Below the pieces are notes generated by a model that saw only the letters and a program-made list of their open reading frames with translations, made no database searches and was not told where the DNA came from. A program made the translations under genes and the position numbers. DNA of 32,000 bases from contig NC_017448.1 of NCBI RefSeq assembly GCF_000146505.1, positions 570,001-602,000 on the forward strand. The letters run 5' to 3'. Of the stretch, positions 15,645 through 32,000 are shown piece after piece. This DNA comes from Fibrobacter succinogenes subsp. succinogenes S85. Lineage in GTDB: Bacteria; Fibrobacterota; Fibrobacteria; Fibrobacterales; Fibrobacteraceae. Within the stretch, counting starts at the first letter, position 1. The number at the start of each line of letters is the position of its first letter.

Positions 15645-19239
<3,595 letters not shown>

Positions 19240-19302
19240 TTCAACAGTTGAGTCATTGGGTAGTTTTTGAACAATACCTATCTCACATTTTAGATTACGA
19301 GA

Positions 19303-20499
19303 TCAATATGCAATATAATCTTCCTCCGAACCCGTAGCAGCCCAATGCAGATAATCAGGAGCATTATCTTCCGCCTTGCATACAAGATACGAAGATTTTC
19401 CCATTGTTTCCGAAACGAGAACCATACCAAATCTTGAAGAAACACATGCAAATCCTTGTTCAACGTGAGCACTGACCCATTTGCCCTGAAGCGAATCATA
19501 GGCATAGGAAAACGATGTAAAATTCGCTTTTATCACTTCACCATCATGACCTTTTTCAATGCCATACAATTCCTGAAAAGTACCGTTCGGACAAATCCAG
19601 CCCGTATCTTTAGAGCACATGTAAGGTCTTTCAACATAGCGGCTCAAAGGATTTGTAACCTTCTTTACTTCCCCATCGTTCTTGTCAGAACATTCTCCAA
19701 GACCATTTGTCTGTCCGAACACATAGCCACTCAGCTTAGTAACAAGGTAATCTGTTTTAGGAATAGACTTTACCCATAAATTTCCTTCTATCATATCAGC
19801 ATATTTCGTTTTAAACGTATCGATTTTTGCTGAATCCGTTTCAAGCATCCAGAACACAGCCGTATCAGAGCTCAACTGGCTAGAAAGCCTTGTATAGGGG
19901 ATACGCGAAAGCATTTGCCATACGGCTTGAAGTTCCGCATCTTTTTCGTTCCCTTCAATTTGATTAGACAGTTTAATATCAAGTGAAGTGGACAACATAT
20001 ACTCCATAATTTCATGCTGAGCGGTTCTTTCAGCAGAATCAGAAGGTATTCCCTTTTTCATCAAATAGAGAATCCTGTTGTACTCCATATTTGTCATAAA
20101 ATTCACATAGACAGAATCCACCCTGCTCAAGTCTGCAAAGCTCCAATATCCGCTTTTCGACATTTTATTCCTAACACACATTACAACATTAGACGATTGT
20201 AATTTGAGATTTTCAAATTTGAAGACATTCGGATACGTCACATATGTTGTAAATTCGCGACCGGTCCAAGAAGCACTAGAATCCAGTTCATACAAAGTCA
20301 CTTCGTACTTGGTGCCACCCCTATCAATAGAATTATAATCTTCACTTGAAATAAAAGACGCAACTCCAACTAATTTGTTTAATTCATATTCAGGAGCGTT
20401 ATCTTCGCTTTCGATATTAACACCTTTAGATACTTCACTACAGCCCATCAAAGCAAGCAAACAAAGCACTATTCCTAAAACATTCAGTTTCATATTCAT
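19303..20499 (-). CDS. Cys-rich lipoprotein, paralog of the 20505-21773 product; possibly the N-terminal part of a split FISUMP protein
   Basis: The signal peptide is M(NM)KLNVLGIVLCLLALMGC with lipobox LMGC. The second ATG at 20493 is better spaced from the GGGGAG RBS. The stop is TGA at 19303-19305. Confidence 0.7.
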   Translation of the reverse strand: MNMKLNVLGIVLCLLALMGCSEVSKGVNIESEDNAPEYELNKLVGVASFISSEDYNSIDRGGTKYEVTLYELDSSASWTGREFTTYVTYPNVFKFENLKLQSSNVVMCVRNKMSKSGYWSFADLSRVDSVYVNFMTNMEYNRILYLMKKGIPSDSAERTAQHEIMEYMLSTSLDIKLSNQIEGNEKDAELQAVWQMLSRIPYTRLSSQLSSDTAVFWMLETDSAKIDTFKTKYADMIEGNLWVKSIPKTDYLVTKLSGYVFGQTNGLGECSDKNDGEVKKVTNPLSRYVERPYMCSKDTGWICPNGTFQELYGIEKGHDGEVIKANFTSFSYAYDSLQGKWVSAHVEQGFACVSSRFGMVLVSETMGKSSYLVCKAEDNAPDYLHWAATGSEEDYIAY

Positions 20500-20504
20500 C
20501 TCCC

Positions 20505-21773
20505 CTACTTCAATGGTTCCTGCTTTGGAAGGTTTTCATCGCATTCACTCATATCAACATCAGGCAAATAATATCCATAAGAATATTCGCATCGGTAGCA
20601 CTTGCGCCCACTTTTTCCATAGCGATTTAACGTTTCTTTCGTACAAGCAAAGCCGACACCACTTTCGGCGGCACTAGCCTTAGTCCATCCAACAGAGCCG
20701 TCGTACATGCGCCCCCACTTGTAATAATCATCCGTACAATATGTTCCTTTAGTCAAGTGGCCCGGAAGCGTATCGCCCACAGAAGAGTTCAGAACAATCA
20801 TGTCCAAATCATAGCATCCATTTCTAGGAAGGGTCCACCCTAATGTATCGCAATACAGGAACTGCGTCTTGTTAGATTCGGTAGCCTTGATTTCATGATA
20901 GTTTTCCGCAGAGCAGTTTCCGAGATTATACTTCTTCTGCCAGATGTTATTCAAGTATTCCTTAACTTTGTATGCATCGGTTTTATAGCCGAATCCAGGC
21001 ACGAAATCATCGAACTTATCGCAACTTGAATTATGATTAAAATAATACGCATAGCTCCAATAAGTCGAGAACAGCGAATCCGTCAAAACATCTTCTTTCA
21101 ACAAGTCGTCTAGTCCACCCGACCTCCACACATAAGTTTCGTTAAGGACATTTACTCCCAACAAGTAGTAATTGTAGTCCCGCAACGTCGAAAGATTCAT
21201 CTTGCTAAAGTCTTCGTGCAGAGAATCGAGCAGGAACAAATCCGAAATTTCTTTTTGCAGCAAAGCCATCGACGAATCAAACGAAAGTCCACGATCAACA
21301 TAGTGCTTTAAACGTTTCGCCTGCATATGCGTCAAAAGGTTCACGCTTATCGAATCGCCTTTACGAACATCCGCATAAGCTTCTAGAACCTTCCAGTTGG
21401 TCATCGGTTCTGTTTCATTCGCATCATAGCAATTGGAATAGAAATTGCCATTCACTTCAAGGTAAACATAGGGCTGTGTAAGTTTGACATTCTCAAGGGA
21501 AAAATGCCCAGAATAATCATCCACAAAACCATGGTACGCCACACCTGTTTGCGAAAGCGTGCTATCGACTTCACGCAAAACAACCTCAGTCATCGAATAA
21601 CCACGCGTTCGATCAACATAACCGACGATGTTATGCGTCGTTTCCTTGGAATTTTCAATTTGCGGGAAATTACTCGAAGTTAAATTATCATCGGAGCAAG
21701 AGCATAACAAAGCGTTCACGCCAAAAACAGATACAATTATGGGGATTAATTTATTTTTTGCAGAAAAAATCAT
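20505..21773 (-). CDS. Cys-rich lipoprotein, unknown function
   Basis: The signal peptide MIFSAKNKLIPIIVSVFGVNALLCSC has a lipobox-like LLCS. Collinear similarity to the next ORF includes VVLREVDSTLSQTG vs VTLYELDSSASWTG, FSLENVKLTQ vs FKFENLKLQS, and GFACT vs GFACV. Confidence 0.7.
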   Translation of the reverse strand: MIFSAKNKLIPIIVSVFGVNALLCSCSDDNLTSSNFPQIENSKETTHNIVGYVDRTRGYSMTEVVLREVDSTLSQTGVAYHGFVDDYSGHFSLENVKLTQPYVYLEVNGNFYSNCYDANETEPMTNWKVLEAYADVRKGDSISVNLLTHMQAKRLKHYVDRGLSFDSSMALLQKEISDLFLLDSLHEDFSKMNLSTLRDYNYYLLGVNVLNETYVWRSGGLDDLLKEDVLTDSLFSTYWSYAYYFNHNSSCDKFDDFVPGFGYKTDAYKVKEYLNNIWQKKYNLGNCSAENYHEIKATESNKTQFLYCDTLGWTLPRNGCYDLDMIVLNSSVGDTLPGHLTKGTYCTDDYYKWGRMYDGSVGWTKASAAESGVGFACTKETLNRYGKSGRKCYRCEYSYGYYLPDVDMSECDENLPKQEPLK

Positions 21774-21840
21774 ATTTCCAACTCACTTCTTATAAAATCA
21801 ATAATAAAAAATTTGGTATTAAAAACAAGATAAAAAGTGC

Positions 21841-21870
21841 ATAAAAAGAAAGGCGCCCCGAAGGACGCCC
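21841..21870 (-). terminator. Strong minus-strand intrinsic terminator (GGCGUCC-UUCG-GGGCGCC followed by UUUCUUUUUAU)
   Basis: On the minus strand it forms a 7-bp stem with one G-U pair, a UUCG tetraloop and a U-tract. On the plus strand the same position is a C-A mismatch and there is no T-tract, so the element is strand-specific. Confidence 0.7.
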
Positions 21871-21997
21871 AGAACTGTTTTAGTTAAAAGATTTAGCACA
21901 GCGAAGCTACAATCTGCAACCCTCAAGGAAGGGTAGTAAACCAAAGCAGCTCGTTTCGGAATAAAACTCGGCTCAAAAGCCCTCGCTTCAATCCCTA
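21841..21997 (-). ncRNA. Candidate ~155-nt structured RNA (independent sRNA or 5' leader/attenuator of the lipoprotein operon)
   Basis: It is bounded by a sigma70-like promoter (22004-22032) and the terminator at 21841-21870. The minus-strand segment contains no ATG. Its 5' and 3' ends can pair (GUUUUUAG with CUAAAAC, GAUU with AAUC, AGCGAGG with CUUCGCU). Internal hairpins include ACCCU-UCCUUG-AGGGU. No known family was recognised. Confidence 0.35.
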
Positions 21998-22003
21998 AAA
22001 ACA

Positions 22004-22121: not shown

Positions 22122-23441
22122 ATGAAATCAGTACCTATAACGCTCCTGACCGGTTACCTGGGAGCCGGCAAAACAACTCTCCTCAACTACGTTCTCAACA
22201 ATCAGCAGGGCTACCACGTCGCCGTCATCGTAAATGACATTGGCGAAGTGAACATCGACCAGACTTTAATTGAAAAGGGCGGAAACATCACGAAGGAAGA
22301 TTCGGGCAAGGTTGTCCCGCTTTCGAATGGTTGTATCTGCTGTTCGCTCAAGACCGACTTGATCGAACAAATCGCCGAACTTTTGGAAATGGGCAAGTTC
22401 GACTACATTCTCATCGAAGCTAGCGGCATCTGCGAGCCGATTCCTATAGCCCAGACCATTAGCTTTGCAGGTAGCCAGCTCCGCAGCAAAGACGGCAGAC
22501 CTCTCCCCTGCCATTTGGACAACATCGTGGCAGTCGTTGACGTGCTCCGCCTCGCAGACGAATTTGCCGGTGGCGAAAAGCTCCTCGAAGAAGACCTCGA
22601 AGAAGAAGATATCGCAAACTTGCTCATCCAGCAGATTGAATTCTGCAACACGATTATCATGAACAAGGTCGACGCTCTCAGCAAGCACGACTTGGAACAC
22701 GTGAAGGCAGTCGTGAAGGCTTTGCAGCCGACAGCCAAGATGATCGAGACGAACTACGGCAAGGTCGACATGAAGGACATTCTCGACACGAAGCAGTTCG
22801 ACTTCAACAAAGTTGCCGAATCGAGCACTTGGGCAATCAAGCTCAACGAAGAAGGTCACGACAACGATGACGATGATGATGACGATCATGACGAACATGA
22901 ACATCACCACCACGACCATGACGATGACCACGATGAGCATGAGCACCATCATCACGACCATGATGAACACGAACATCACCATGACCACGACGATGAAGAC
23001 CACAGCCATTGCGACCATGAACATGGTGTTTGCCACTGCGGCCACCACCACGACAAGGACCATCCGCATGGTGACGAATACGGCATCAGCACGTTCGTGT
23101 TCGAAGACCACCGTCCGCTGAACCGCGAAAAGTTCGAAGCATTCCTCGATGACTATCCAACGAGCATCATCCGCACGAAGGGTCTCCTCTGGTTCAGCGA
23201 CGAACGCAGTGAAAGCTACTTGTTCGAACAGGCAGGCAAGCAGGCCTCCGCCCAGAATTTTGGACGTTGGTTCGCCGCCGAAAGCAAGGCCGAACAACAG
23301 CGCATTCTCGAAGAAAATCCGCAGCTCCAGAAAATTTGGGACGAAAAGTACGGCGACCGCATCATCCGCCTGGTATTCATTGGCCAGCACATGGACAAGA
23401 AAAAGATTATCCAGGTGATGAAGGACTGCTTGGACGACTAA
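22122..23441 (+). CDS. COG0523-family (CobW/ZigA/YeiR-like) metallochaperone GTPase with a long His/Asp-rich insert
   Basis: It has P-loop GYLGAGKTTLLN, the metal-binding motif GCICCS, NKVD, and a CobW C-terminal-like region. Confidence 0.85.
   Translation: MKSVPITLLTGYLGAGKTTLLNYVLNNQQGYHVAVIVNDIGEVNIDQTLIEKGGNITKEDSGKVVPLSNGCICCSLKTDLIEQIAELLEMGKFDYILIEASGICEPIPIAQTISFAGSQLRSKDGRPLPCHLDNIVAVVDVLRLADEFAGGEKLLEEDLEEEDIANLLIQQIEFCNTIIMNKVDALSKHDLEHVKAVVKALQPTAKMIETNYGKVDMKDILDTKQFDFNKVAESSTWAIKLNEEGHDNDDDDDDDHDEHEHHHHDHDDDHDEHEHHHHDHDEHEHHHDHDDEDHSHCDHEHGVCHCGHHHDKDHPHGDEYGISTFVFEDHRPLNREKFEAFLDDYPTSIIRTKGLLWFSDERSESYLFEQAGKQASAQNFGRWFAAESKAEQQRILEENPQLQKIWDEKYGDRIIRLVFIGQHMDKKKIIQVMKDCLDD
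22857..23075 (+). repeat. Low-complexity His/Asp/Glu-coding tract with internal near-repeats (HDEHEHHHHDHD three times)
   Basis: About aa 246-318 of the GTPase read HDNDDDDDDDHDEHEHHHHDHDDDHDEHEHHHHDHDEHEHHHDHDDEDHSHCDHEHGVCHCGHHHDKDHPHGD. Confidence 0.9.
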
Positions 23442-23540: not shown

Positions 23541-24989
23541 TTACATTTCTTCGATTTCTTGCATTTCAATAGCATCAACGTCTGGCGGGAGCGGATTTTT
23601 GGAGTCTTGTTTTGCACCAAGACGTTCCAGCTTGCGGCAGGACTGTACAATGCTTTGGCCCTTATCGTCAAGTTTTGCCATTCCCTTATTGTAGGCCTCC
23701 TGAGCCTTACCGAGAGCGGCACCGATTTCATCCATGTTTTTTACGAAAATGCCCACGCGCTTGAGCACTTCGTTCGCAAGTTCAAAGACCTTTTGCTGGT
23801 TTTGAGCCTGTTGCACTTGGCGCCAGGTCATTTTCACCATACGAAGCATCGCGTAAAGGGATTGTTCATCGGCGATGTAGACATTTTTTTCAAAAGCATC
23901 ACGCCATAACGCATGATCTTCGGCAAGAGCTGTCCAAAGGGCTGCCGCTCGCGGCACAAACATCACGACAAAGTCCATTGTCTTCTTGGGAGCCTTGACA
24001 TAGCTCGAATAATCCTTTACCGAGAGTTCATTTACGTGTTTGCGGAGGCTTTCGATATGCTTTTTCAAGAGAACTTTGCGCTCGTCAGGATTTTCTGCCT
24101 GCATATAGTCCATAAATGCAGCCATAGAAACTTTCGAATCAACGACAACTTCTTTGTACGGGTCCAAATGCACAATCACATCCGGGCGCAACATTGCATT
24201 ATTCCCTTCAGCACGCACAACGTTACCGTTGGCATCACGGAGTGTTGCCTGCACATCAAAATGTTTCCCTTCCTCAAGACCAAGTGATTCCAGGACTTCT
24301 TCAAGAACGCGTTCTCCCCAATCGCCCTGAATTTTGCTATCGTGCTTAAACGCACGCACAAGTTCATTAGCAGCATTCTTGGTTTTGTCATTGGCATCAA
24401 TGGACTGTTTCAAGACTTCCTTGAGTGAAGAATTCGCTTCGGTCTGTGCGCGGGTCGTGTCGTTCATGGTCTTTTCCATCTTGGCGATGGTTTCCTTGAG
24501 CGGGCTTACAAGCTGTTCCATGGTCGCATGACCGGATTCCGAGATCTGCTTTTCGCGCTGTTTAAGCATTTCTTCAGTAGAGTTCTTTGCTTGGGCATAT
24601 AAGCGCTGCGACATTTCCGTAAAACGAGCATTTTGCTCATTTAGCGAAGATTGATGCACTCGTTCCATATCCAGCTTCATACTTTCTAGGCGCTTGGCAC
24701 TCGCCTCTTTTTCATCGGCTAGAGACTTGGCAGCGGCGGCGCGCTCGTCAGCAATCCGCTTTTCAGCATCGGCTTTTACCATTTCAAGCTGTTTTTCGGT
24801 ATTTTCTTTAAGTTCTGCGTTTTTAACAGTTTCTGTCGCGAGCTGGCTACGCAGCACAGCGACTTCCTTTTCCATTTCAACATTCGCCTGACGCGCAGCG
24901 GCTTCGCGCTGCGAGTTTCCATTACGGGCAAACAAGACGCCGATTACAATTCCGAGGACAGCGCAAATAATGGCTACGGCTATGGTCAT
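23541..24989 (-). CDS. rmuC: DNA recombination protein RmuC
   Basis: 482 aa. It has an N-terminal TM anchor (MTIAVAIICAVLGIVIGVLF), a long coiled-coil, then an RmuC-type C-terminal region (GDWGERVLEEVLE...RPDVIVHLP-like...VDSKVSM...FVVMFVP). Confidence 0.85.
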   Translation of the reverse strand: MTIAVAIICAVLGIVIGVLFARNGNSQREAAARQANVEMEKEVAVLRSQLATETVKNAELKENTEKQLEMVKADAEKRIADERAAAAKSLADEKEASAKRLESMKLDMERVHQSSLNEQNARFTEMSQRLYAQAKNSTEEMLKQREKQISESGHATMEQLVSPLKETIAKMEKTMNDTTRAQTEANSSLKEVLKQSIDANDKTKNAANELVRAFKHDSKIQGDWGERVLEEVLESLGLEEGKHFDVQATLRDANGNVVRAEGNNAMLRPDVIVHLDPYKEVVVDSKVSMAAFMDYMQAENPDERKVLLKKHIESLRKHVNELSVKDYSSYVKAPKKTMDFVVMFVPRAAALWTALAEDHALWRDAFEKNVYIADEQSLYAMLRMVKMTWRQVQQAQNQQKVFELANEVLKRVGIFVKNMDEIGAALGKAQEAYNKGMAKLDDKGQSIVQSCRKLERLGAKQDSKNPLPPDVDAIEMQEIEEM

Positions 24990-25037
24990 GAAGATACTCC
25001 TTTTAACGTTTTATCAATATATCGCTATTTAAATGAA

Positions 25038-25080
25038 AAATGTCAAGTGTTTTTCAAGAAATAATGGATCCTACGCTCAA
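25038..25080 (-). promoter_or_regulatory. Repeat copy A / rmuC promoter module (minus strand: ..TCCATTATTTCTTGAAA..TTGACATTT)
   Basis: It shares the blocks AAATGTCAA, TTTCAAGAAATAATGGA, CC and TACGCT with 30504-30552. The minus-strand TTGACA (reverse complement of 25041-25046) lies exactly 51 nt before the rmuC ATG, and CGATA follows at spacer positions 17-21. Confidence 0.55.
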
Positions 25081-27389
25081 CTGGCGAGATCCTTGACCTT
25101 GTCCCAGAGCTTGGCGCCAGCATTTTTCACAGACTTGAGACTTTTGCGAGCCTTTCCAAAAAAACTGTAATTATCAAGTTCGTCTTGCGCGGATTCATTG
25201 CCGACGTTTTCAGCGACATTCACAGGCTTGTCGCCTTCATTGTTTTCGACAGACGGATCAGCGCCGGCATCAACAAGCATTTTGACGATACGACCATTCG
25301 CATAACGCGCTGCAATATGGAGCGGACGGTTCCCATAAGCATCAACTCGGTTGACATTCGCATTTTTCTTGATCAAGAAAGCCACCAAATCCGTTCTGTT
25401 CCGCTGGATGGCGTAAGCAAGCGGCGTTTCGCCCGCATTGTCCATCGCATCCACTTTCGCGCCCTGCGAAAGGAGAACGTTCATCCACATCGCCCCATTC
25501 TGCATGCTCAAGGCGCGATGCATCAGCGTTTTTCCATTTGCAAAGACTCGATTCGCCGAGCCCACATCGTTTGCAAGCAAGAACTGCAACGATTCCTTTT
25601 TCTGGCCCATAAGAGCCTTTTCAACAGGCGCCATGCTTTTATATGGGAGCATCATATTGGCGCCCTTTGACTTCAGGAATTTCAGGGAGGACACGTCATT
25701 ATTTTCTACAGCATAATGAATCGCTGCACAACCAGTGTATTTCGACACATAATTGATATTCGCGCCCAACTGCAAATAGGACTTTGCCAGGTCCAAATTA
25801 CGATGTTTTACAGCAGCCACAAAAAGGCTATCTCTATAGGTATAGTCAAACAGGTATTTCGAGGTTTTGTTGTGGACAAAGGTCATGGGAGTCTGCGCAG
25901 AAGAGTTCTTATCATACACGGAAAGCCCAAACGACATCAGCTTTTGAGCGATCGCAAGATCGTTCTTCTTGACAGCCACGAAAAGTGCTGTTTCGCCCAA
26001 ACGGTTCCTGGCGTGAATATCCGCACCCAATTTCTGCAATTCCGTAAACATCGTAAGATTGCGTGCAACCGCATAATGAATAAGCGGGACGCCATTTTCG
26101 TCCTTATCATTGACGCTTGCGCCATACCCAACAACTTCTTTCAGCAAATCAATATTACCCTTCTTGACAGCATCGAAAATCAACTGATTTTTGAGCCTGT
26201 AATGGTTCAAGAACTTTTTGTTCACCGCATTCTTCGTCAATTTTTCAGCAAGCACACCTGCATTATCCGGAGTATTCACGTCAAGACCAAGCGCAATGAG
26301 GTGTTTGAGCACAGGCACATTTCCGTTCACAGCTGCATAATGGAGCAAAGTATTGCCTTTTTCATCCGTGTAATGCAAGTCTGCGCCATTTCTATACGCA
26401 AGCTTTGCATCAAGCGCAGCAATATTCCCCGCCTTGATGGCGTTCTGGATTTGCTCCACCTTGGTATACGCATCCTGAAGCACAAGCAAACTCTGCTGCG
26501 TCTTGGCATAATTCTTCAAATGCTCATAGTTTTCCTGAATCCATTCATGCGGACGCGCCTGGACAAAAGGTTTCGCATAATAAGAGCATCCCGATTCAAG
26601 CGCAAGCTCCAACGGGGTACGCCCCATATTATCGGTCAACCGCTCATCAGCGCCATGATGCAACAACGTATCAATCAGCTCCGCAGAGCCAATCCTTACT
26701 GCATAATGCAAAGGCGCATCACCAACTGAGTCCTTGCTATTGACAAAGACTCCGTTATTCAACAAATCCGCAACGTACTTGGCGTCGCCCACGGCACAAG
26801 CGGAGAATAGCTTTTCCATTTTACGCTTAGGGTCTTTCGGAATGTAGCCGTTATCGTACAAGACAAAATAAGCCACAGAAATCAAAAGCGCAGCACCAAT
26901 CAACGTAAAAAGCAAGCCCCAAAGTCTTACTCGACGGGCTTTTACCAAAGCAACCTGCGAATACATCGCTGTTTCACGCGCTCTCTGTTGCGTTGAATCG
27001 CGCTCACGCTGCAGAGTTGTAATCTGCTGAGTCAACCCGACAAGAGTCCCCTCCAAAGTCGGCACAACAACATTCTTGACAAGCCCCAATGCATACGCAT
27101 ACGAGTCAATCACATAATCGCTCATCACGCGATCAAGCCTGGAATTTTCGGCAAAAAACTGTTTCTGCTTGCGAATACAGAGGTTCAGGTCACTGCGATT
27201 GCTTGCAAAACCGAGCATAGAACTCCCCACGCCCAGCTGCTCCGCAAGCACTATTGACGAACGGTATTCATAAAACGACTCGCCAAGTTCATCAGCAAGC
27301 AACCCCCGCAATCTATGATCGCAGACAATGTCGTTACCATAAGTATTGACAAGCTGACGCATGATAATATGTAAGGGGCGCTTATTCAT
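25077..27389 (-). CDS. Membrane-anchored ankyrin-repeat protein (N-terminal ~110-aa unknown domain, coiled-coil, one TM, then at least 12 ANK repeats)
   Basis: The TM helix is LWGLLFTLIGAALLISVAYFVLY. There are many ANK consensus units (GDAPLHYAVRIGSAELIDTLLHHGAD, GNTLLHYAAVNGNVPVLKHLIALGLDVN, GETPLAYAIQRNRTDLVAFLIKKNANVN, GNRPLHIAARYANGRIVKMLVDAGADP). The ATG directly abuts the upstream TAA (TAAATG). Confidence 0.85.
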   Translation of the reverse strand: MNKRPLHIIMRQLVNTYGNDIVCDHRLRGLLADELGESFYEYRSSIVLAEQLGVGSSMLGFASNRSDLNLCIRKQKQFFAENSRLDRVMSDYVIDSYAYALGLVKNVVVPTLEGTLVGLTQQITTLQRERDSTQQRARETAMYSQVALVKARRVRLWGLLFTLIGAALLISVAYFVLYDNGYIPKDPKRKMEKLFSACAVGDAKYVADLLNNGVFVNSKDSVGDAPLHYAVRIGSAELIDTLLHHGADERLTDNMGRTPLELALESGCSYYAKPFVQARPHEWIQENYEHLKNYAKTQQSLLVLQDAYTKVEQIQNAIKAGNIAALDAKLAYRNGADLHYTDEKGNTLLHYAAVNGNVPVLKHLIALGLDVNTPDNAGVLAEKLTKNAVNKKFLNHYRLKNQLIFDAVKKGNIDLLKEVVGYGASVNDKDENGVPLIHYAVARNLTMFTELQKLGADIHARNRLGETALFVAVKKNDLAIAQKLMSFGLSVYDKNSSAQTPMTFVHNKTSKYLFDYTYRDSLFVAAVKHRNLDLAKSYLQLGANINYVSKYTGCAAIHYAVENNDVSSLKFLKSKGANMMLPYKSMAPVEKALMGQKKESLQFLLANDVGSANRVFANGKTLMHRALSMQNGAMWMNVLLSQGAKVDAMDNAGETPLAYAIQRNRTDLVAFLIKKNANVNRVDAYGNRPLHIAARYANGRIVKMLVDAGADPSVENNEGDKPVNVAENVGNESAQDELDNYSFFGKARKSLKSVKNAGAKLWDKVKDLAS

Positions 27390-28367
27390 TTACTGTTCGT
27401 TTCCTTTTTTGTTGATGATCCCGGCAAGGCTCATGTCGTCCTTGCTGCCGTGCAAGCTCATATCGCTGAAGCCTTCGTCCATACGGGCGACCGCCTGCTC
27501 TTTACCAATATCTAAATACATTTGCAAAAGCCGCATATAGAACCGGTTCAGACATTCAGGAGCTACATCGTAATCGCCTACAGAATCCTCGATTCCATCG
27601 CTACACGCAAATACCGCAAACGGGAAATGCCCTGTACCGTCAAATGCGTAGCGGAACGAGTCCGCGGGATTCTTATCGCAAAGCGATGTCGTGTAGTTCA
27701 AGAAACACGTTGAATCCCACGGCACTGGCGGAGTCCAGTTTTCATAAGGCTCGGCGCTATCGTTCAGGCAAAGCAGTCTGCCATCGCCCACGTGAATCGC
27801 AAGCCAGCCCCACCGCGTCTGCACATAAGCCATCAGCGTTGAGCCATAAGCCTTCACCAAGTCGTTTTTGCCCAAGAGTTCCTTCTCAGCATCGGTCAGC
27901 GGGTTTTCTTGGGCGTCCTGCTGGATGGCGGCAACCCACTTTTCGCAAATTCGACGGCACACATCGCGGATTAGCTTTTCTTGCGGCTGGATATTCCCAA
28001 TCTGTTGCTGATACAGCATTGCTTGCTCTTCGCGAAGCTTCGCTGTTTCGGATTTTTCCTCCGATTTTTCAGTCCAACAGGAATCCCCCACATCCGTGCG
28101 GGCTGTCACCGCCCCCGTCCGATTTCCAAGGAACTTGCGAGCATCTTCGGATTGCATGAACTGCATCAGTTCATCCTTTGCAATCCCAGCCGCAAGCCTT
28201 GCCCCAACATCACTCCGGACGTAAGACGGTGAACCATGCCCATCGCATACCACGATCAACTGGATTTCGCCATCATTATATTCTAGCGAAAAGTCCTGGC
28301 ACGGGATATTTGCAGGCAAATGCTTCGCCCCGACTTTGCTCACCGCAAACGTTTCAGCATTTTGCAT
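27390..28367 (-). CDS. PP2C-family Ser/Thr phosphatase (TerY-triad type)
   Basis: I trimmed the start to ATG 28367, with GGAG upstream and 16 nt after the vWA stop (the ORF track starts at 28496, overlapping the vWA gene). Motifs are SKVGAKHLPANIPCQDF, VVCDGHGS and ACSDGIED. Confidence 0.8.
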   Translation of the reverse strand: MQNAETFAVSKVGAKHLPANIPCQDFSLEYNDGEIQLIVVCDGHGSPSYVRSDVGARLAAGIAKDELMQFMQSEDARKFLGNRTGAVTARTDVGDSCWTEKSEEKSETAKLREEQAMLYQQQIGNIQPQEKLIRDVCRRICEKWVAAIQQDAQENPLTDAEKELLGKNDLVKAYGSTLMAYVQTRWGWLAIHVGDGRLLCLNDSAEPYENWTPPVPWDSTCFLNYTTSLCDKNPADSFRYAFDGTGHFPFAVFACSDGIEDSVGDYDVAPECLNRFYMRLLQMYLDIGKEQAVARMDEGFSDMSLHGSKDDMSLAGIINKKGNEQ

Positions 28368-28383
28368 ACACACCTCAGACTCC

Positions 28384-29154
28384 CTAGTTCCAGCCGGACC
28401 AGTCATTGGAACCGGAATTGGCCGTACTTGAACCCACATCGACTCCTGAAAGCGATGCATCGTTTGCAACCGTATTCGAAATTGACTGTGCGACAAGCTG
28501 GTTCTGCGTTACCATTGCAGCGCCGACAGATGCACTTTGGCTTGCCACCGTTGTCGCAGACACGCTGACCGTATGAATCATCTTCTTGAGCTGATCCACA
28601 TTGTGAACCGTGATGACCGATTCCGAACTGCCCGTAAATTCCCGGAGCACGTCATTATTGGCATCGTCACCGATGGCGATAGCCACCTTCACACCAGCCT
28701 TGAACCAGCGATTCCCCTTGAGCTTTTCCAGCTTACGGACATAGCCATCCGTCGGAGCGCCGTCCGAAAGGAGGACAATGGCAGGTGCGCGGCACCCCGT
28801 CTTTTCGCCCATAAAACCATTAGACCTGGAAAGTTTAGCGTCCAATTCTGCACAGGCGCTACCAAACGATGTCGTACCACTTGCGCTCAAATCCTGCCAC
28901 TGGAACTTTTCGGCTTCAAGCGGCTGTTCGTACATCCAATTGACAGCGCTACTGAACTCAAGCACGGCAATCTTGATTTGCGAATCGCCGCAATTCTTGG
29001 AGATGTCGCCCACATCGTCAAGAGCGTCACGAACCGCCGTATTGAGCGATGCAATCTTTGAACCGGACATACTGCCCGACGTATCCACCATAAAAATCAG
29101 ATGCGTGACACGACGCGGGATCGGTTCCAACGCAAACGGGTCTTTTGTAGCCAT
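28384..29154 (-). CDS. von Willebrand factor A (vWA) domain protein, TerY-like
   Basis: It has the MIDAS motif MVDTSGSMSG, then SGTTSFGSA and LLSDGAPTD. The C-terminal tail is S/N/T/V-rich and ends in NDWSGWN. The RBS AAGGAG lies 8 nt upstream of the ATG. Confidence 0.8.
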   Translation of the reverse strand: MATKDPFALEPIPRRVTHLIFMVDTSGSMSGSKIASLNTAVRDALDDVGDISKNCGDSQIKIAVLEFSSAVNWMYEQPLEAEKFQWQDLSASGTTSFGSACAELDAKLSRSNGFMGEKTGCRAPAIVLLSDGAPTDGYVRKLEKLKGNRWFKAGVKVAIAIGDDANNDVLREFTGSSESVITVHNVDQLKKMIHTVSVSATTVASQSASVGAAMVTQNQLVAQSISNTVANDASLSGVDVGSSTANSGSNDWSGWN

Positions 29155-29168
29155 ATTCTATTCTCCTT

Positions 29169-30455
29169 TTATTCAATAACGGCAGTTTCGCCTTGATTTC
29201 CAAACTTGATCTTGTAACCTTTGCGGGCAGGCATGCCCTGACCATCCGCAACGACTCGCTGAGTGCCGTCCAAACACGTCACCGTCCAGGATTCGCCAGA
29301 ATTATTGCAAAGCCCCACCTCATTGTTCTTGACGACGGTTCTGCCAACGACCTTGTCGTAATCGGTTGAGCAGTGGACTAGACATTCATGGAGCTTCTGC
29401 TCCATCATCAGCGGAATTTTAAACTTACCTACGCGCAACATTCTATAATCTCCAAATGACTTATCGCAGTAAGCACACTTTTTGTCAACACTATCCGGGT
29501 CCGCAAATGAAAATTTTCCGCATTTCGGGCATTTGACAAAATCCGCACGCACCTGCAGCAAAATATCGCGCCATTCCTTATCCTTCACGCGGAGGTCTCC
29601 GTTTTGCAGAGCCTCCTTACTGAACGTCTTGCAGAATGCATCGCGCAATACCTTCGGATAGATATCCCAACGGCGCATCACATTCTTATGCAGGCTCGGA
29701 TCCGGCGCATTGCTCTTGTCGTTTGGATCCATAATAAATACGGCGTTATACCCCAAAAGTTGCCTTGCCATTTCCGGGTCGTTATCACACGGGCAAGAGA
29801 GATAACGTCTGCCTTCAAACGGACGGTTCATATAAATCAAGATGAACAGACAAACCGCAAGCGAATGGTAATCCGTCACTTTGCGCGGCCTAGACTTTCC
29901 TTCGACAATTTCGGGTGCCATATACCCCGCCTTGCCAAGAATGCCAAGGTCGTCGGTACCATCGGGAGCCACGTTATCGTTATCGCAAATCAGCACGTCA
30001 CCCGTTTTAGGGTTAATAAAGAAGTTGCCATCGTTCATATCCTGGTAGCTATAACCGTCGCGATGCAGGTCCAAAAACGATTTCACAAGTTGCATACAGG
30101 CGTTCAGCTGGGCATTCACATCGGCAAAACGGGCAGTCACCAAGATGAACTTGCTCATGTCCACATAGCCTGCGGGGCGGATTTTCATCAAATAGCCAAA
30201 TCCACCATTGGGGTCTTCGGCAACAGCCATCGGCCAAATAAAATGTTCGTTCGGCGTCTGGCGATTCGCATTGCGCTTCAGATTTTCACGGAAACGCTCA
30301 CTCACCTTTTGCGTGTACCATTTTAACGCATACTCACTACCATTATAATTGACAGCGTAAACGATTCCCTGACCGCCACGACCCAATTCACGGACAACTT
30401 GACAAGTGTCACCGCCAGCGAGCGCGACCACATCCCCTTTTTTCAATTCGGACAT
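29169..30455 (-). CDS. Atypical Hanks-like protein kinase with a CxxC..CxxC zinc ribbon and a beta-rich C-terminal domain
   Basis: I trimmed the start to ATG 30455, 5 nt after GGGAGG (the ORF track starts at 30512). It has G-loop LGRGGQGIVY, a lysine in YALKWY, catalytic loop LHRDGYSYQDMNDGN (Asp and Asn retained; HRD becomes YQD), ICDND in place of DFG, GYMAPE, and CPKC...CAYC. Confidence 0.75.
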   Translation of the reverse strand: MSELKKGDVVALAGGDTCQVVRELGRGGQGIVYAVNYNGSEYALKWYTQKVSERFRENLKRNANRQTPNEHFIWPMAVAEDPNGGFGYLMKIRPAGYVDMSKFILVTARFADVNAQLNACMQLVKSFLDLHRDGYSYQDMNDGNFFINPKTGDVLICDNDNVAPDGTDDLGILGKAGYMAPEIVEGKSRPRKVTDYHSLAVCLFILIYMNRPFEGRRYLSCPCDNDPEMARQLLGYNAVFIMDPNDKSNAPDPSLHKNVMRRWDIYPKVLRDAFCKTFSKEALQNGDLRVKDKEWRDILLQVRADFVKCPKCGKFSFADPDSVDKKCAYCDKSFGDYRMLRVGKFKIPLMMEQKLHECLVHCSTDYDKVVGRTVVKNNEVGLCNNSGESWTVTCLDGTQRVVADGQGMPARKGYKIKFGNQGETAVIE

Positions 30456-30503
30456 AAAGCCTCCCAAAAATTTTTTCTTCATACTTATCGACTTGAGGGG
30501 GCT

Positions 30504-30552
30504 AAATGTCAAATTAATTTCAAGAAATAATGGAACCCGTCGCTACGCTTCA
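30504..30552 (-). promoter_or_regulatory. Repeat copy B / promoter module of the kinase operon
   Basis: It has the same blocks as 25038-25080, with a 6-nt insertion. The minus-strand TTGACA (reverse complement of 30507-30512) lies exactly 51 nt before the kinase ATG at 30455, and CGATA again sits at spacer positions 17-21. Confidence 0.55.
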
Positions 30553-30574
30553 GGATGACAAGCGTCAGGATGAC
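30550..30574. repeat. Two 10-bp direct repeats TCAGGATGAC (30550-30559 and 30565-30574)
   Basis: Read directly from the sequence. They lie in the divergent kinase/sigma intergenic region, immediately distal to repeat copy B. Confidence 0.7.
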
Positions 30575-30631
30575 GAGCAATGACATTATAATAGGGGGTT
30601 CTGAAAAAAAATTTTCGGCAGGACCTCCGAA

Positions 30632-30646
30632 TGTCATTATATGACA
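30632..30646. promoter_or_regulatory. Inverted repeat TGTCAT-TAT-ATGACA (candidate operator) upstream of the sigma-factor gene
   Basis: It has perfect 6-bp arms and lies about 58 nt upstream of ATG 30704. Related ATGACATTATAAT at 30580-30592 contains a perfect TATAAT (30587-30592). Confidence 0.4.
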
Positions 30647-30703
30647 GTGCAAAAAATTATTTTTGGGAACGCTTTCAAGTTCACCTCATCCAAGGAGTCG
30701 CCC

Positions 30704-31444
30704 ATGATGAACACCCACACCACCGCAAACGAAGTCATGAACCTCATTGACCTCGCCCAGCACACCAAAAATGGCAAGGAAGGTTCCGATGCCATCAACA
30801 AACTGTGGGACATCTTCGGCGACAAGGTCACCGGAATCACCATCAAGAAATCTTTTTCGCACGATTCCGACCATAGCATGCACGGCATGTCGGTCTACGA
30901 ACGCCGTAACCAGCTCCAGGAACAGGCGTTTGACACATTCCGCAACGCCGTCTTGACATACGATGCCAGCACGAACGTGCCATTCATGGCTTACGTTTCG
31001 AAGAAAATCAACTGGCAGCAGCTTGACTTCAAGCGCAAGAACGCAAAGCACACCCATAACGAAAAAGCCACCGACTTTTCCATCGAAGGCGGCTCTTCCA
31101 TCTCAATGGACGATCCAAAAAACGCAGAAATGCTGGAAACCATGAACCACATTGACTTGGAATCACCCATGGCAGGCCGTTTTGTCGAGGATTTTGAAAA
31201 GCAGTCATACCTCGATGACATGGTCCACGTTCTCTTCGGCAAGCTCCAGAACGAAAAGAAGCTTCTTGAATTCGCCACCACATACTATGAAGTATGCCAG
31301 GAAGAAGACAAGGACACCGATGCCGAAGTCGCCAAAAGGATGGGCTGCACCCGCTCTTACGCAAGCCAGCTCCACAAAAAGCTCATCGCATTCTTGAGCA
31401 ACACCGATTTCGCCGACGACTGCCGCATGGCTCTTGCCGCATAA
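30704..31444 (+). CDS. ECF-like sigma-70 family RNA polymerase sigma factor (orphan, no adjacent anti-sigma)
   Basis: I trimmed the start to ATG 30704, 6 nt after AAGGAG. Region-2-like PFMAYVSKKINWQQLDFKRKN resembles the FxxWLxxIxxNxxxDxxRK pattern. Region-4 HTH-like sequence is EVAKRMGCTRSYASQLHKKLIAFL. A long acidic linker joins them. Confidence 0.6.
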   Translation: MMNTHTTANEVMNLIDLAQHTKNGKEGSDAINKLWDIFGDKVTGITIKKSFSHDSDHSMHGMSVYERRNQLQEQAFDTFRNAVLTYDASTNVPFMAYVSKKINWQQLDFKRKNAKHTHNEKATDFSIEGGSSISMDDPKNAEMLETMNHIDLESPMAGRFVEDFEKQSYLDDMVHVLFGKLQNEKKLLEFATTYYEVCQEEDKDTDAEVAKRMGCTRSYASQLHKKLIAFLSNTDFADDCRMALAA

Positions 31445-31460
31445 AAAATTTGATAAGAGA

Positions 31461-31498
31461 GGCTTTTTATAGCGTTTCACTATAAAAAGTCCCTTTTC
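31461..31498 (+). terminator. Putative terminator after the sigma-factor gene
   Basis: GGCTTTTTATAG-CGTTTCA-CTATAAAAAGTCC forms an AT-rich 12-bp stem with one bulge, followed by CTTTT. Confidence 0.4.
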
Positions 31499-31542
31499 AG
31501 AGTAGGTTTATAGGATTTTTCATTTTTTTTTAGAACTCCCCC

Positions 31543-31571
31543 TTGCCATGTGCAATTTTGATTGATATTTT
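31543..31571 (+). promoter_or_regulatory. Sigma70-like promoter TTGCCA-17 nt-TATTTT for the trp leader
   Basis: The -35 is at 31543-31548 and the -10 at 31566-71. The predicted start site falls at or near the leader ATG (31578), which would explain the missing SD. Confidence 0.35.
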
Positions 31572-31577
31572 TGTGTC

Positions 31578-31634
31578 ATGATGAATTTCGTAACAAATGC
31601 AACTCTCAACCGTCGTTGGTGGCGCGGACTCTAA
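31578..31634 (+). CDS. trpL: trp operon leader peptide MMNFVTNATLNRRWWRGL (tandem Trp codons)
   Basis: An 18-codon ORF read by hand (too short for the ORF track). It has TGG TGG at 31617-31622, four codons before the TAA. It lies 154 nt upstream of trpE and is followed by alternative hairpins and a terminator. Confidence 0.65.
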   Translation: MMNFVTNATLNRRWWRGL

Positions 31635-31679
31635 CATAGAGCCCGGTATTTGTTACAAATCACCCAAGATTTTTAAGCA

Positions 31680-31712
31680 AAGGCTTCCGGACTCACGGAG
31701 GCCTTCCTTTTT
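31680..31712 (+). terminator. Attenuator terminator upstream of trpE
   Basis: AAGGCTTCCG-GACTCA-CGGAGGCCTT forms a 10-bp stem with one G-U pair, followed by CCTTTTT. It lies 76 nt before the trpE ATG. Confidence 0.65.
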
Positions 31713-31787
31713 ACCGAAAATTGACGAAATCCTCCGGGAAATAAAGCCTTTGCGAAAGCAAACGAGTTTTAAAACTAGAGGATTAAA

Positions 31788-32000
31788 ATGACTAAGATTA
31801 CTCACATCACCGAACGCCCGGGTTACGCTCCGCGTACCGACAGCATTTACGTCGCTCTCCCCGGTGAACGTTACACCCCGTTTTCACTCGCCAAGAAGCT
31901 CGGCGCAAAGGCCATCTTCGAATCGGCAAGCTTTGACCACGGTCGTAGCCGTTATTCGACCTTGATGGTGGACGAAGGTTTTCGCCTGCGCCAGAACGAC
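31788..32000 (+). CDS. trpE: Anthranilate synthase component I, N-terminal 71 codons (3' end lies outside the window)
   Basis: The hand translation is MTKITHITERPGYAPRTDSIYVALPGERYTPFSLAKKLGAKAIFESASFDHGRSRYSTLMVDEGFRLRQND. The pattern TPxSLxxKL...xxES...GRSRYS matches the TrpE N-terminus. The RBS AGAGGA lies 5 nt upstream. Confidence 0.75.
   Translation, partial: MTKITHITERPGYAPRTDSIYVALPGERYTPFSLAKKLGAKAIFESASFDHGRSRYSTLMVDEGFRLRQND

Follow-up and report, generated by a model that had tools for sequence, protein, structure and literature searches.

The window analyzed in this study is a 32-kb stretch of Fibrobacter succinogenes S85 DNA (CP001792.1, about 137-158 kb). Between trpE and rmuC it holds a cassette of four genes, which encode a Ser/Thr kinase, a protein with a VWA domain, a PP2C-type phosphatase and an ankyrin-repeat protein, and which is flanked by two imperfect direct repeats, termed here copy A (next to rmuC) and copy B (upstream of the kinase gene). 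These repeats are probably best explained as a duplicated promoter-upstream segment, made up of an A/T-rich tract and a -35 hexamer, and because related strains have one copy and no cassette, the repeat would mark the recombination point for gain or loss of the cassette. The event is of an ordinary kind, namely a direct-repeat-flanked islet with promoter duplication, of which this locus is a new example.

Position and make-up of the repeat pair

Copy A occupies positions 25038-25079 (42 nt; minus-strand reading TGAGCGTAGGATCCATTATTTCTTGAAAAACACTTGACATTT) and fills the space from the stop codon of the ankyrin gene to the -35 hexamer of rmuC. Positions 25077-25079 read TGA, the stop codon, on the minus strand, and one base of this codon is shared with the AGCGTA block. 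Copy B occupies 30504-30552 (49 nt; minus-strand reading TGAAGCGTAGCGACGGGTTCCATTATTTCTTGAAATTAATTTGACATTT) and lies upstream of the kinase start codon at 30455. An exact 17-mer, an exact 9-mer that holds TTGACA, and AGCGTAG are common to both copies, and on the plus strand the shared blocks are found as AAATGTCAA (25038-25046 and 30504-30512), TTTCAAGAAATAATGGA (25052-25068 and 30518-30534) and TACGCT (25072-25077 and 30544-30549). The copies differ in six extra nucleotides in copy B (CGTCGC on the plus strand) and at four positions of the 5-nt block beside the 17-mer, which is AACAC in copy A and TTAAT in copy B. The placement of the two copies (copy A abutting the ankyrin stop codon, copy B upstream of the kinase start), the order of their blocks and the 6-nt insertion had been described in an earlier note on this DNA and were verified on the sequence. 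The portion that contains the 17-mer and the -35 hexamer is hereafter referred to as module M and has the form TCCATTATTTCTTGAAA-N5-TTGACATTT.

A repeat search recovered copies A and B as a 34-nt pair with 85% identity. Two matches to the 17-mer with up to 3 mismatches were found in the 32 kb, where 0.16 are expected by chance, and the composite pattern of 9-mer, N5 and 10-mer (up to 3 mismatches) likewise gave two matches, where 0.05 are expected. Although the 17-mer is the longest exact direct repeat of the window, by itself it is only modestly unusual, because a 17-nt exact repeat was reached in 1 of 30 mononucleotide shuffles of the window. On the basis of the composite pattern and the comparative data the repeat pair is clearly non-random.

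Alleles with and without the cassette

The comparison set consisted of about 20 related loci (labeled L with a number). The RmuC relatives at 77-80% identity (L010-L014 and L148-L153) have trpE directly beside rmuC and contain neither the cassette nor ORF246, an open reading frame (ORF) that in S85 lies between trpE and copy B. Compared with such an empty site of the L010 type, S85 has 6.4 kb of additional DNA (25025-31468, converted from the blastn breakpoints L001 3522-9965), which comprises ORF246 and the four cassette genes together with both flanking copies, including the TTGACA of copy A; homology between S85 and L010 picks up only at CGATATATTG, in the -10 region of rmuC. No copy of the repeat is present at the L010-type empty sites (L010, L013 and L148-L153).

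A second kind of cassette-less allele is found in L142 and L143, where trpE is followed by a single M copy and then directly by rmuC. Empty sites of this make-up, for which the earlier note had proposed to look, therefore exist. Upstream of rmuC L142 reads GTCATCCTGA..GTCATCCTGAGCGAAGCGAAGGATCCAGTGATTTCTCGAAAAACAGTTGACATTTTTCATTTAAATAACGATATATTG, and in the blastn comparison L142 2482-2561 corresponds to copy B with its left flank and L142 2521-5681 to copy A with rmuC, so that the two alignments overlap on the single copy. This copy is a hybrid: it agrees with copy B in the 6-nt indel and with copy A in GGATCC, in the AACAG/5-nt block and in everything downstream. Judged from these alignments, the combination of a B-type left flank with an A-type right flank can be regarded as an empty-site signature. 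The L142/L143 version of the 17-mer has three changes and is one nucleotide longer.

A pattern built to fit the A, B and L142 copies gave five matches in a scan of metagenomes, four of them at the trpE-rmuC locus (L143, L144, L146, and L147) and one (L145) an unrelated A/T-rich chance match. L147 is cassette-bearing and 97.6% identical to S85, has M upstream of the kinase gene and lacks ORF246; no S85 protein is identical to its L147 counterpart. In L144, M is likewise located upstream of the kinase gene and is identical to S85 copy A at 33 of 33 positions, and L146 (93.6% identical to S85) has both copies. The left flanks of the empty allele L143 and the cassette-bearing allele L147 are 94% identical, and their alignment stops right after TTGACATTTT. 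From the placements in L142-L144, L146, and L147 it follows that M precedes the first gene after the trpE spacer, which is the kinase gene where the cassette is present and rmuC where it is absent (L142 and L143). L137 is also cassette-bearing (76% identical over ORF247 through rmuC) and has no 17-mer at either promoter.

The earlier note had also considered that the motif might be a generic promoter element scattered upstream of unrelated genes. The composite M pattern was found at no unrelated gene, neither in the 32-kb window (up to 3 mismatches) nor in the metagenome scan, and within the window and these metagenomes M appears to be specific to the trpE-rmuC locus. A search of a genome collection with the exact 17-mer gave at least 120 matches, and among the matches listed none was from Fibrobacter and none had TTGACA 5 nt downstream; these matches fall in unrelated taxa and were attributed to chance.

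Promoter layout at rmuC and the kinase gene

Each copy places a perfect TTGACA on the minus strand. Inside copy A the rmuC hexamer is located at 25041-25046 and is separated by a 17-nt spacer from GATATA (25018-25023), and inside copy B the kinase hexamer at 30507-30512 is separated by a 17-nt spacer from GATAAG (30484-30489). Both hexamers end exactly 51 nt ahead of the respective ATG (24989 for rmuC, 30455 for the kinase gene), as had been noticed before.

In an alignment of 13 orthologous promoters (alignment A1) the GATA box and its spacing are kept throughout. The eight M-bearing promoter copies of this alignment share the -35 hexamer and the 17-mer or its L142/L143 variant. The five orthologous promoters without M lack the 17-mer, yet have a -35-like hexamer (TTTACA, TGTACA, TAAACA, or TGTTCA) exactly 17 nt before GATAAG or GATATA. 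The M-less rmuC promoters of L141, L137, and L013 thus retain a skeleton of a TTKACA-like hexamer, N17 and GATATA with a weaker -35 (TAAACA, TGTACA, TGTTCA), and the kinase promoters of L137, L138, and L140 read TTTACA-N17-GATAAG without the 17-mer. Since each gene retains its own -10-like box and the M-less orthologs keep the -35/N17/GATA skeleton, M would supply a consensus -35 hexamer and an A/T-rich tract. In the proposed scheme M and its left neighborhood would be composed of three parts, namely the right end of a small hairpin-type repeat (AGCGTAG..GGATCC), the A/T-rich tract (ATTATTTCTTGAAA and 5 nt) and the consensus -35 (TTGACATTT).

The A/T-rich tract is located at about -37 to -54, which is the position of an UP element, and its role may be UP-like. 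UP elements of sigma-70 promoters are reportedly A/T-rich and located at about -40 to -60. With the start inferred from the -35 hexamer, ATTATTTCTTGAAAAACA matches about 10 of the 15 specified positions of the UP consensus, a consensus that stems from E. coli. The likeness is one of position and composition, and the block is TTAAT in copy B vs. AACAC in copy A. To our knowledge recognition by the RNA polymerase alpha subunit is unstudied in Fibrobacter.

Both the rmuC promoter and the kinase promoter are predicted to be active, and a similar behavior of the two in S85 is plausible because they have the same -35 hexamer and upstream tract. TTGACA-N17-GATAWR may accordingly be put forward as a candidate layout of Fibrobacter promoters that is conserved across the kinase and rmuC promoters of this locus. 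On the minus strand, a hairpin that resembles a terminator (TTCGGAGGTCCTGCCGAA, with a T run after it) is located at 30614-30631, between ORF246 and copy B and facing the kinase gene, and may insulate the kinase promoter from upstream transcription.

A dispersed hairpin-type repeat next to copy B

A small dispersed hairpin-type repeat adjoins copy B: its left arm consists of two tandem GTCATCCTGA units at 30550-30574 (minus strand), and its right arm extends into the copy. The same tandem arrangement is found upstream of rmuC in the empty site L142. The family has the form GTCATYCTGA-loop-GAAGGATC(C/T), with the left part GTCATCCTGA..loop..GAAGGATCC. It occurs at four other distinct and unrelated sites (L010 1602, 3451, and 8020; L015 7848) within about 190 kb of Fibrobacter sequence, and three independent loci continue as TCCATTATTT or TCCAGTGA..TTCTGAAA. 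Because the family recurs at unrelated sites, the AGCGTAG..GGATCC..ATTATTT part of the repeat goes back to a small dispersed repeat. Changes in the outer stem preserve pairing (ATCCT/AGGAT vs. ATTCT/AGAAT), and the same two-stem shape was predicted for four of six folded members, with energies within the range of shuffled sequence (z -1.1 to +0.2). From GTCATCCTGA to TCCATT the sequence is hypervariable, with three loop versions among the alleles. A search of positions 24000-32000 against Rfam gave no match at E<=1, and for this reason neither the repeat nor the trpE leader dealt with below is assigned to a described RNA family.

Family members are located at L010 7882-8054 (minus strand), at about L013 7135-7306, at L010 1602 and at about L015 7790-7872, and their loops often have mini-hairpins of the GCGAAGC type. 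L010 and L013 have a 173-nt insert with one family copy between trpGD and trpE that is not present in S85. Another copy, GTAATCCTGAGCAAGCGCAGCGCGTCGAAGGATCTCC, lies in the IGPS/PRAI (trpC/F) gene (about L010 3417-3451, minus strand; about L013 2871-2905) and is possibly an in-frame insertion between the two enzyme domains.

Among known elements, this family is most readily compared with repetitive extragenic palindromic (REP) sequences, bacterial interspersed mosaic elements (BIME) and miniature inverted-repeat transposable elements (MITE), which it resembles in that the left part recurs at unrelated intergenic sites, varies between strains and has a pair-preserving stem. It differs from them in that only the left part of the locus repeat belongs to the family, the hairpins are weak and have no Rfam match, and no link to a transposase and no target duplication were seen. 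Dispersed copies that vary in presence between strains were found for the GTCATCCTGA..GAAGGATC part only. The data point to a family of small dispersed hairpin repeats within the genus Fibrobacter.

Copy A is optional and its origin

Copy A is recent and optional among the cassette-bearing alleles. L141, which bears the cassette, matches S85 with 99-100% identity in rmuC and 92-100% identity in the final 1.1 kb of the ankyrin gene, but after the TGA stop codon it reads TTTTTTTAGAATTTTATTAA vs. GCGTAGGATCCATTATTTCTTGAAAAACACTTG in S85, so that copy A stands in place of a 20-nt A/T-rich segment. In a base-by-base comparison the ankyrin-rmuC junction of L141 matches that of L137 at 21 of 28 positions, and given this resemblance the junction without copy A represents the older state of cassette-bearing alleles.

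In L146, copy A also begins right at the stop codon, and its left part (GCCAAGGAGTAGGGGCTTGGCCCCA) is the one found in copy B of L144, whereas copy B of L146 itself differs there; L146 copy A and L144 copy B have a stretch of about 48 nt with a unique loop in common. Both S85 and L146 have a copy B with the odd 5-nt block TTAAT and a copy A with AACAC or AACAT, as in the kinase-side copies of L144 and L147. Owing to this block, and to the L144-type left part in L146, copy A is not simply a recent duplicate of the resident copy B in its present form. Derivation of S85 copy A from L146 copy A by deletions was rejected, since two unrelated deletions would be needed; a better fit as its source would be an L142-type element in which GCGAAG slipped by one unit.

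The rmuC gene is strongly mosaic, which points to frequent recombination between strains at this locus. Its first 200-600 nt (to about 200 in L142 and about 600 in L146) and roughly its last 300 nt are 85-100% identical to S85, and its middle part (alignment columns about 600-1200) is 62-78% identical in L142, L143, and L146; L141 is 99-100% identical throughout.

Proposed sequence of events

On our favored explanation, M would lie at the edge of a variable trpE-rmuC spacer, and the gene that comes first would contribute a GATA box of its own, 17 nt downstream. At the junction of the ankyrin stop codon with the rmuC spacer, about 20 nt of weaker native sequence would have been replaced by a second M in S85 and L146, which would give rmuC a full -35 hexamer and upstream tract and leave the cassette between direct repeats of 42-49 bp. 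The differences between cassette-bearing and M-carrying empty alleles are best read as the outcome of one recombination event, with breakpoints inside the repeat, at the end of M, or in the ACATTTT core. With breakpoints inside the repeat, recombination of copy A with copy B would delete the cassette, and rmuC would retain an intact promoter with M, the arrangement found in L142.

The order of events may have been as follows. The cassette would be old at the locus, as judged from L137, and the hairpin-repeat cluster and M would then have evolved upstream of the kinase gene. Recombination between the two -35 regions would have generated the M-carrying empty alleles, and its substrate may have been the full A/B repeat or else the ACATTTT(GC) core that L147 has on the kinase side and L141 on the rmuC side. 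Copy A may have arisen through short-patch copying with TGA/GA as the left and ACATTTT as the right boundary, for which we favor a short-patch template switch or microhomology-bounded recombination; alternatively, the cassette may have re-entered an M-carrying empty allele via homology-facilitated illegitimate recombination.

The outline of the first explanation offered in the earlier note, that the cassette came to lie between the rmuC promoter and rmuC with duplication of the promoter, therefore fits the single-copy empty sites of L142 and L143. Its more specific part, an insertion scar or attachment (att) site, does not stand: L141 and L137 carry the cassette without copy A, most cassette-less relatives have no copy at all, the cassette encodes no recombinase or transposase, and the ORF246 insertion/deletion lies outside the repeat pair.

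Several observations weigh against the favored explanation. A scan for E. coli-type sigma-70 consensus promoters called neither the rmuC site nor the kinase site: both -35 hexamers are perfect, but the boxes at the N17 distance were rejected because GATATA and GATAAG are not TATAAT-like. The pentamer CGATA, which the earlier note had placed at spacer positions 17-21 as a -10-like region, does occupy these positions at both sites. A literature search found no paper on Fibrobacter transcription starts. The left parts of copy A differ between S85 and L146 while the left boundary is the same, which would call for two similar events or for later remodeling of the hairpin part, and the frequency of copy A among cassette-bearing strains was estimated from four alleles (the L147 and L144 junctions being left out). 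A few further M copies elsewhere in the S85 chromosome are possible. Finally, the direction of the change is itself interpretive, as the same alleles would fit both insertion of the cassette into an M-rmuC promoter and its deletion from a cassette-bearing ancestor.

A more far-reaching proposal is that the cassette is cleanly removable and perhaps re-insertable, in that recombination between the promoter copies would delete it and restore the rmuC promoter, and that the mixture of alleles in the rumen would reflect ongoing, selected switching of a defense-type cassette at a promoter-embedded hotspot. This proposal is speculative and we consider it rather improbable.

Alternative explanations

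Instead, a small mobile repeat of the MITE or REP type with an outward-facing -35 could have inserted twice independently, once at each promoter, in which case the repeat pair would be uninformative on the cassette. The left part of both copies does belong to a dispersed family that occurs at unrelated sites and varies between strains, and the sequence into which the right arm continues resembles the 17-mer in L015 as well as in the element that L010 and L013 have in common. This explanation is nevertheless unlikely: the composite with the -35 was found at this locus only in the window and the metagenome scan and the dispersed members have no TTGACA, copy A has no left arm and starts exactly at the ankyrin stop codon, L142 joins a B-type left flank to an A-type right flank, and the predicted stability of the hairpins does not exceed that of shuffled sequence. 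Moreover, the sequence of about 48 nt shared with L144 copy B suggests that L146 copy A was copied from a B-type allele and not inserted afresh. Held by us to be just as unlikely is that the 17-mer is a transcription-factor operator, or a recognition element of ORF246, that co-regulates rmuC and the cassette and is kept identical by selection. Such an element would account for the 17/17 identity of the copies while the adjoining 5 nt differ at four positions, for the partial dyad TTTC-TT-GAAA within the 17-mer, for the equal distance of both copies to the -35 and the ATG, and for the position of the weakly sigma-70-like ORF246 beside copy B. The motif is missing, however, at the kinase promoters of L137, L138, and L140 and at the rmuC promoters of L141, L137, L010, L013, and L148-L153, has a 3-change, 1-nt-longer variant in L142 and L143, and has no other copy in the window or the metagenomes; L147 keeps M without ORF246, and the identity of the motif needs no selection because all M-bearing alleles are 93-98% identical overall. 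The second explanation of the earlier note, a conserved module by which rmuC and the cassette are co-regulated, finds no support as a conserved feature, given the absence of the 17-mer from these kinase and rmuC promoters and of any copy at unrelated genes in the window and the metagenomes. A promoter of the extracytoplasmic function (ECF) type read by ORF246 was also rejected, as its AAC...CG spacing misfits and as M occurs without ORF246 in L147.

A classical integrative element, with copies A and B as attL and attR of a site-specific island or as the target-site duplication of a transposon, would explain why direct repeats flank the cassette and why a single-copy empty site exists in L142 and L143. 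Transposon target-site duplications are short and exact (2-14 bp) and are accompanied by terminal inverted repeats and a transposase. The present repeats are unlike this type, as they are 42-49 bp long, differ by a 6-nt indel and have diverged in a 5-nt block; the cassette ends have no terminal inverted repeats and no tRNA-type target, and the GC content of the cassette is not distinct from that of its flanks. No integrase, recombinase or transposase was detected in the four cassette genes and ORF246 by Pfam, PADLOC, and NCBIfam scans. Together with the cassette-bearing alleles that lack the repeats (L137, at 76% identity, has neither and L141 has no copy A) this led us to reject the att-site and transposon models, and an integrative element in general is very improbable. 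Least of all do we expect a chance resemblance of two A/T-rich promoter regions, which has a negligible probability. Promoters would share TTGACA anyway and shuffled sequence did reach a 17-nt exact repeat once, but two perfect matches of the composite pattern were observed against the small number expected, AGCGTAG is common to both copies at identical spacing, and the copies stand in copy relationships to related strains (the 33/33 match and the shared sequence of about 48 nt).

Comparison with known systems and significance

The locus resembles direct-repeat-flanked islets, which are subject to RecA-dependent or microhomology-mediated deletion and to homology-facilitated illegitimate recombination, in its imperfect repeats of 42-49 bp with breakpoints within the repeat and in the natural alleles with exactly one hybrid copy and no cassette (L142 and L143). 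It differs from them in that the repeat is a functional-looking half of a promoter and in that recombination is deduced here from allele sequences. A likeness also exists to promoter duplication or capture, where a hybrid promoter is formed from an incoming -35 and a resident -10: a perfect TTGACA with an A/T-rich tract is located 17 nt from the GATA-type -10 of each gene, and relatives without M have weaker hexamers at the same position. In contrast to that system no insertion sequence is involved, the donor would be the neighboring promoter of the same locus, and the case is again read from sequence.

Because the breakpoints would lie in the promoter, rmuC as a housekeeping gene would keep a working-looking promoter with or without the cassette. 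The locus would therefore provide an example, at base-pair resolution, of a TerY-P-type signaling or defense cassette that is gained and lost at a single chromosomal site of a rumen bacterium. These observations may help in annotation, in the design of Fibrobacter promoters and in work on the turnover of defense islands, and they do not overturn current understanding.

Genes of the cassette and their neighbors

All four cassette genes are located on the minus strand. The first encodes the Ser/Thr kinase (29169-30455; PF00069, with weak PD-T4-6 matches), followed by the VWA-domain protein (28384-29154; PF00092), which has a TerY-like position, the PP2C-type phosphatase (27390-28367; PF13672; a 325-aa form as in the public record) and the 770-aa ankyrin-repeat protein (25077-27389; ankyrin families of Pfam). 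The resident gene rmuC (23541-24989, minus strand; PF02646) is found in all related loci with or without the cassette. The GC content gives no sign of recent horizontal transfer, with 46-52% in the cassette and 47-50% in its flanks.

A TerY-P triad comprises a VWA protein, a PP2C phosphatase and a Ser/Thr kinase with a zinc ribbon (PMC10542128, citing Anantharaman et al., 2012; Gao et al., 2020). The cassette core holds all three domains (PF00092, PF13672, and PF00069) on adjacent genes of the same strand in one operon. For the kinase of the triad a C-terminal zinc ribbon or OB fold is expected, and past its kinase domain the S85 protein has CPKC at residue 309 and CAYC at residue 327 (CxxC pairs, residues 309-330), which is evidence at the level of a motif. 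The difference from the known triad is its company, consisting of the 770-aa ankyrin protein, often a sigma-like ORF, and rmuC next to it. We know of no defense or tellurite-resistance phenotype for the Fibrobacter cassette. In L139 (3129-12501) a 62%-identical kinase-VWA-PP2C triad is part of a larger operon with ankyrin, FtsK-like ATPase, HSP70-like and several unknown ORFs, which suggests that the triad and the ankyrin protein are a module reused in bigger conflict-type systems.

ORF246 (30704-31444, plus strand; 246 aa) is divergent from the kinase gene and lies outside the repeat pair. It has sub-threshold NCBIfam and Pfam matches to the sigma-70 family (SigE/ECF models, E-values of 4e-6 to 1e-3), which are far below the curated cut-offs. 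It is present in S85, L137, and L146 and absent in the cassette-bearing L147, and represents a separate insertion/deletion difference that is independent of the presence of the cassette. Just upstream of ORF246, at 30632-30646, lies a TGTCAT-N3-ATGACA inverted repeat with a TATAAT core, and the related TGTCATATAATGTCA is found in the spacers of the cassette-less loci L010, L152, and L153.

Other features of the window

The stretch at about 19000-22000, between cobW and ligA, has a low GC content (38-43% vs. about 48%) and contains two or three ORFs without Pfam matches and a Fib_succ_major protein. Since it is absent from L010, L013, and L142, it represents a second strain-specific insertion in the window. 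The leader of trpE, of about 250 nt (about 31540-31790; L001 3203-3450), is 84-96% conserved in all related loci and has hairpin-forming segments (GGAAGGCCTCCG..CGGAAGCCTTT). Rfam gave no match for it at E<=1, and it could represent a trp attenuator or leader of an undescribed kind. The CobW-family gene (22122-23441, plus strand) has at 22839-23074 a long imperfect periodic repeat of 9-12 nt that encodes a His/Asp-rich stretch, as is typical of metal-chaperone GTPases of the CobW/COG0523 type.

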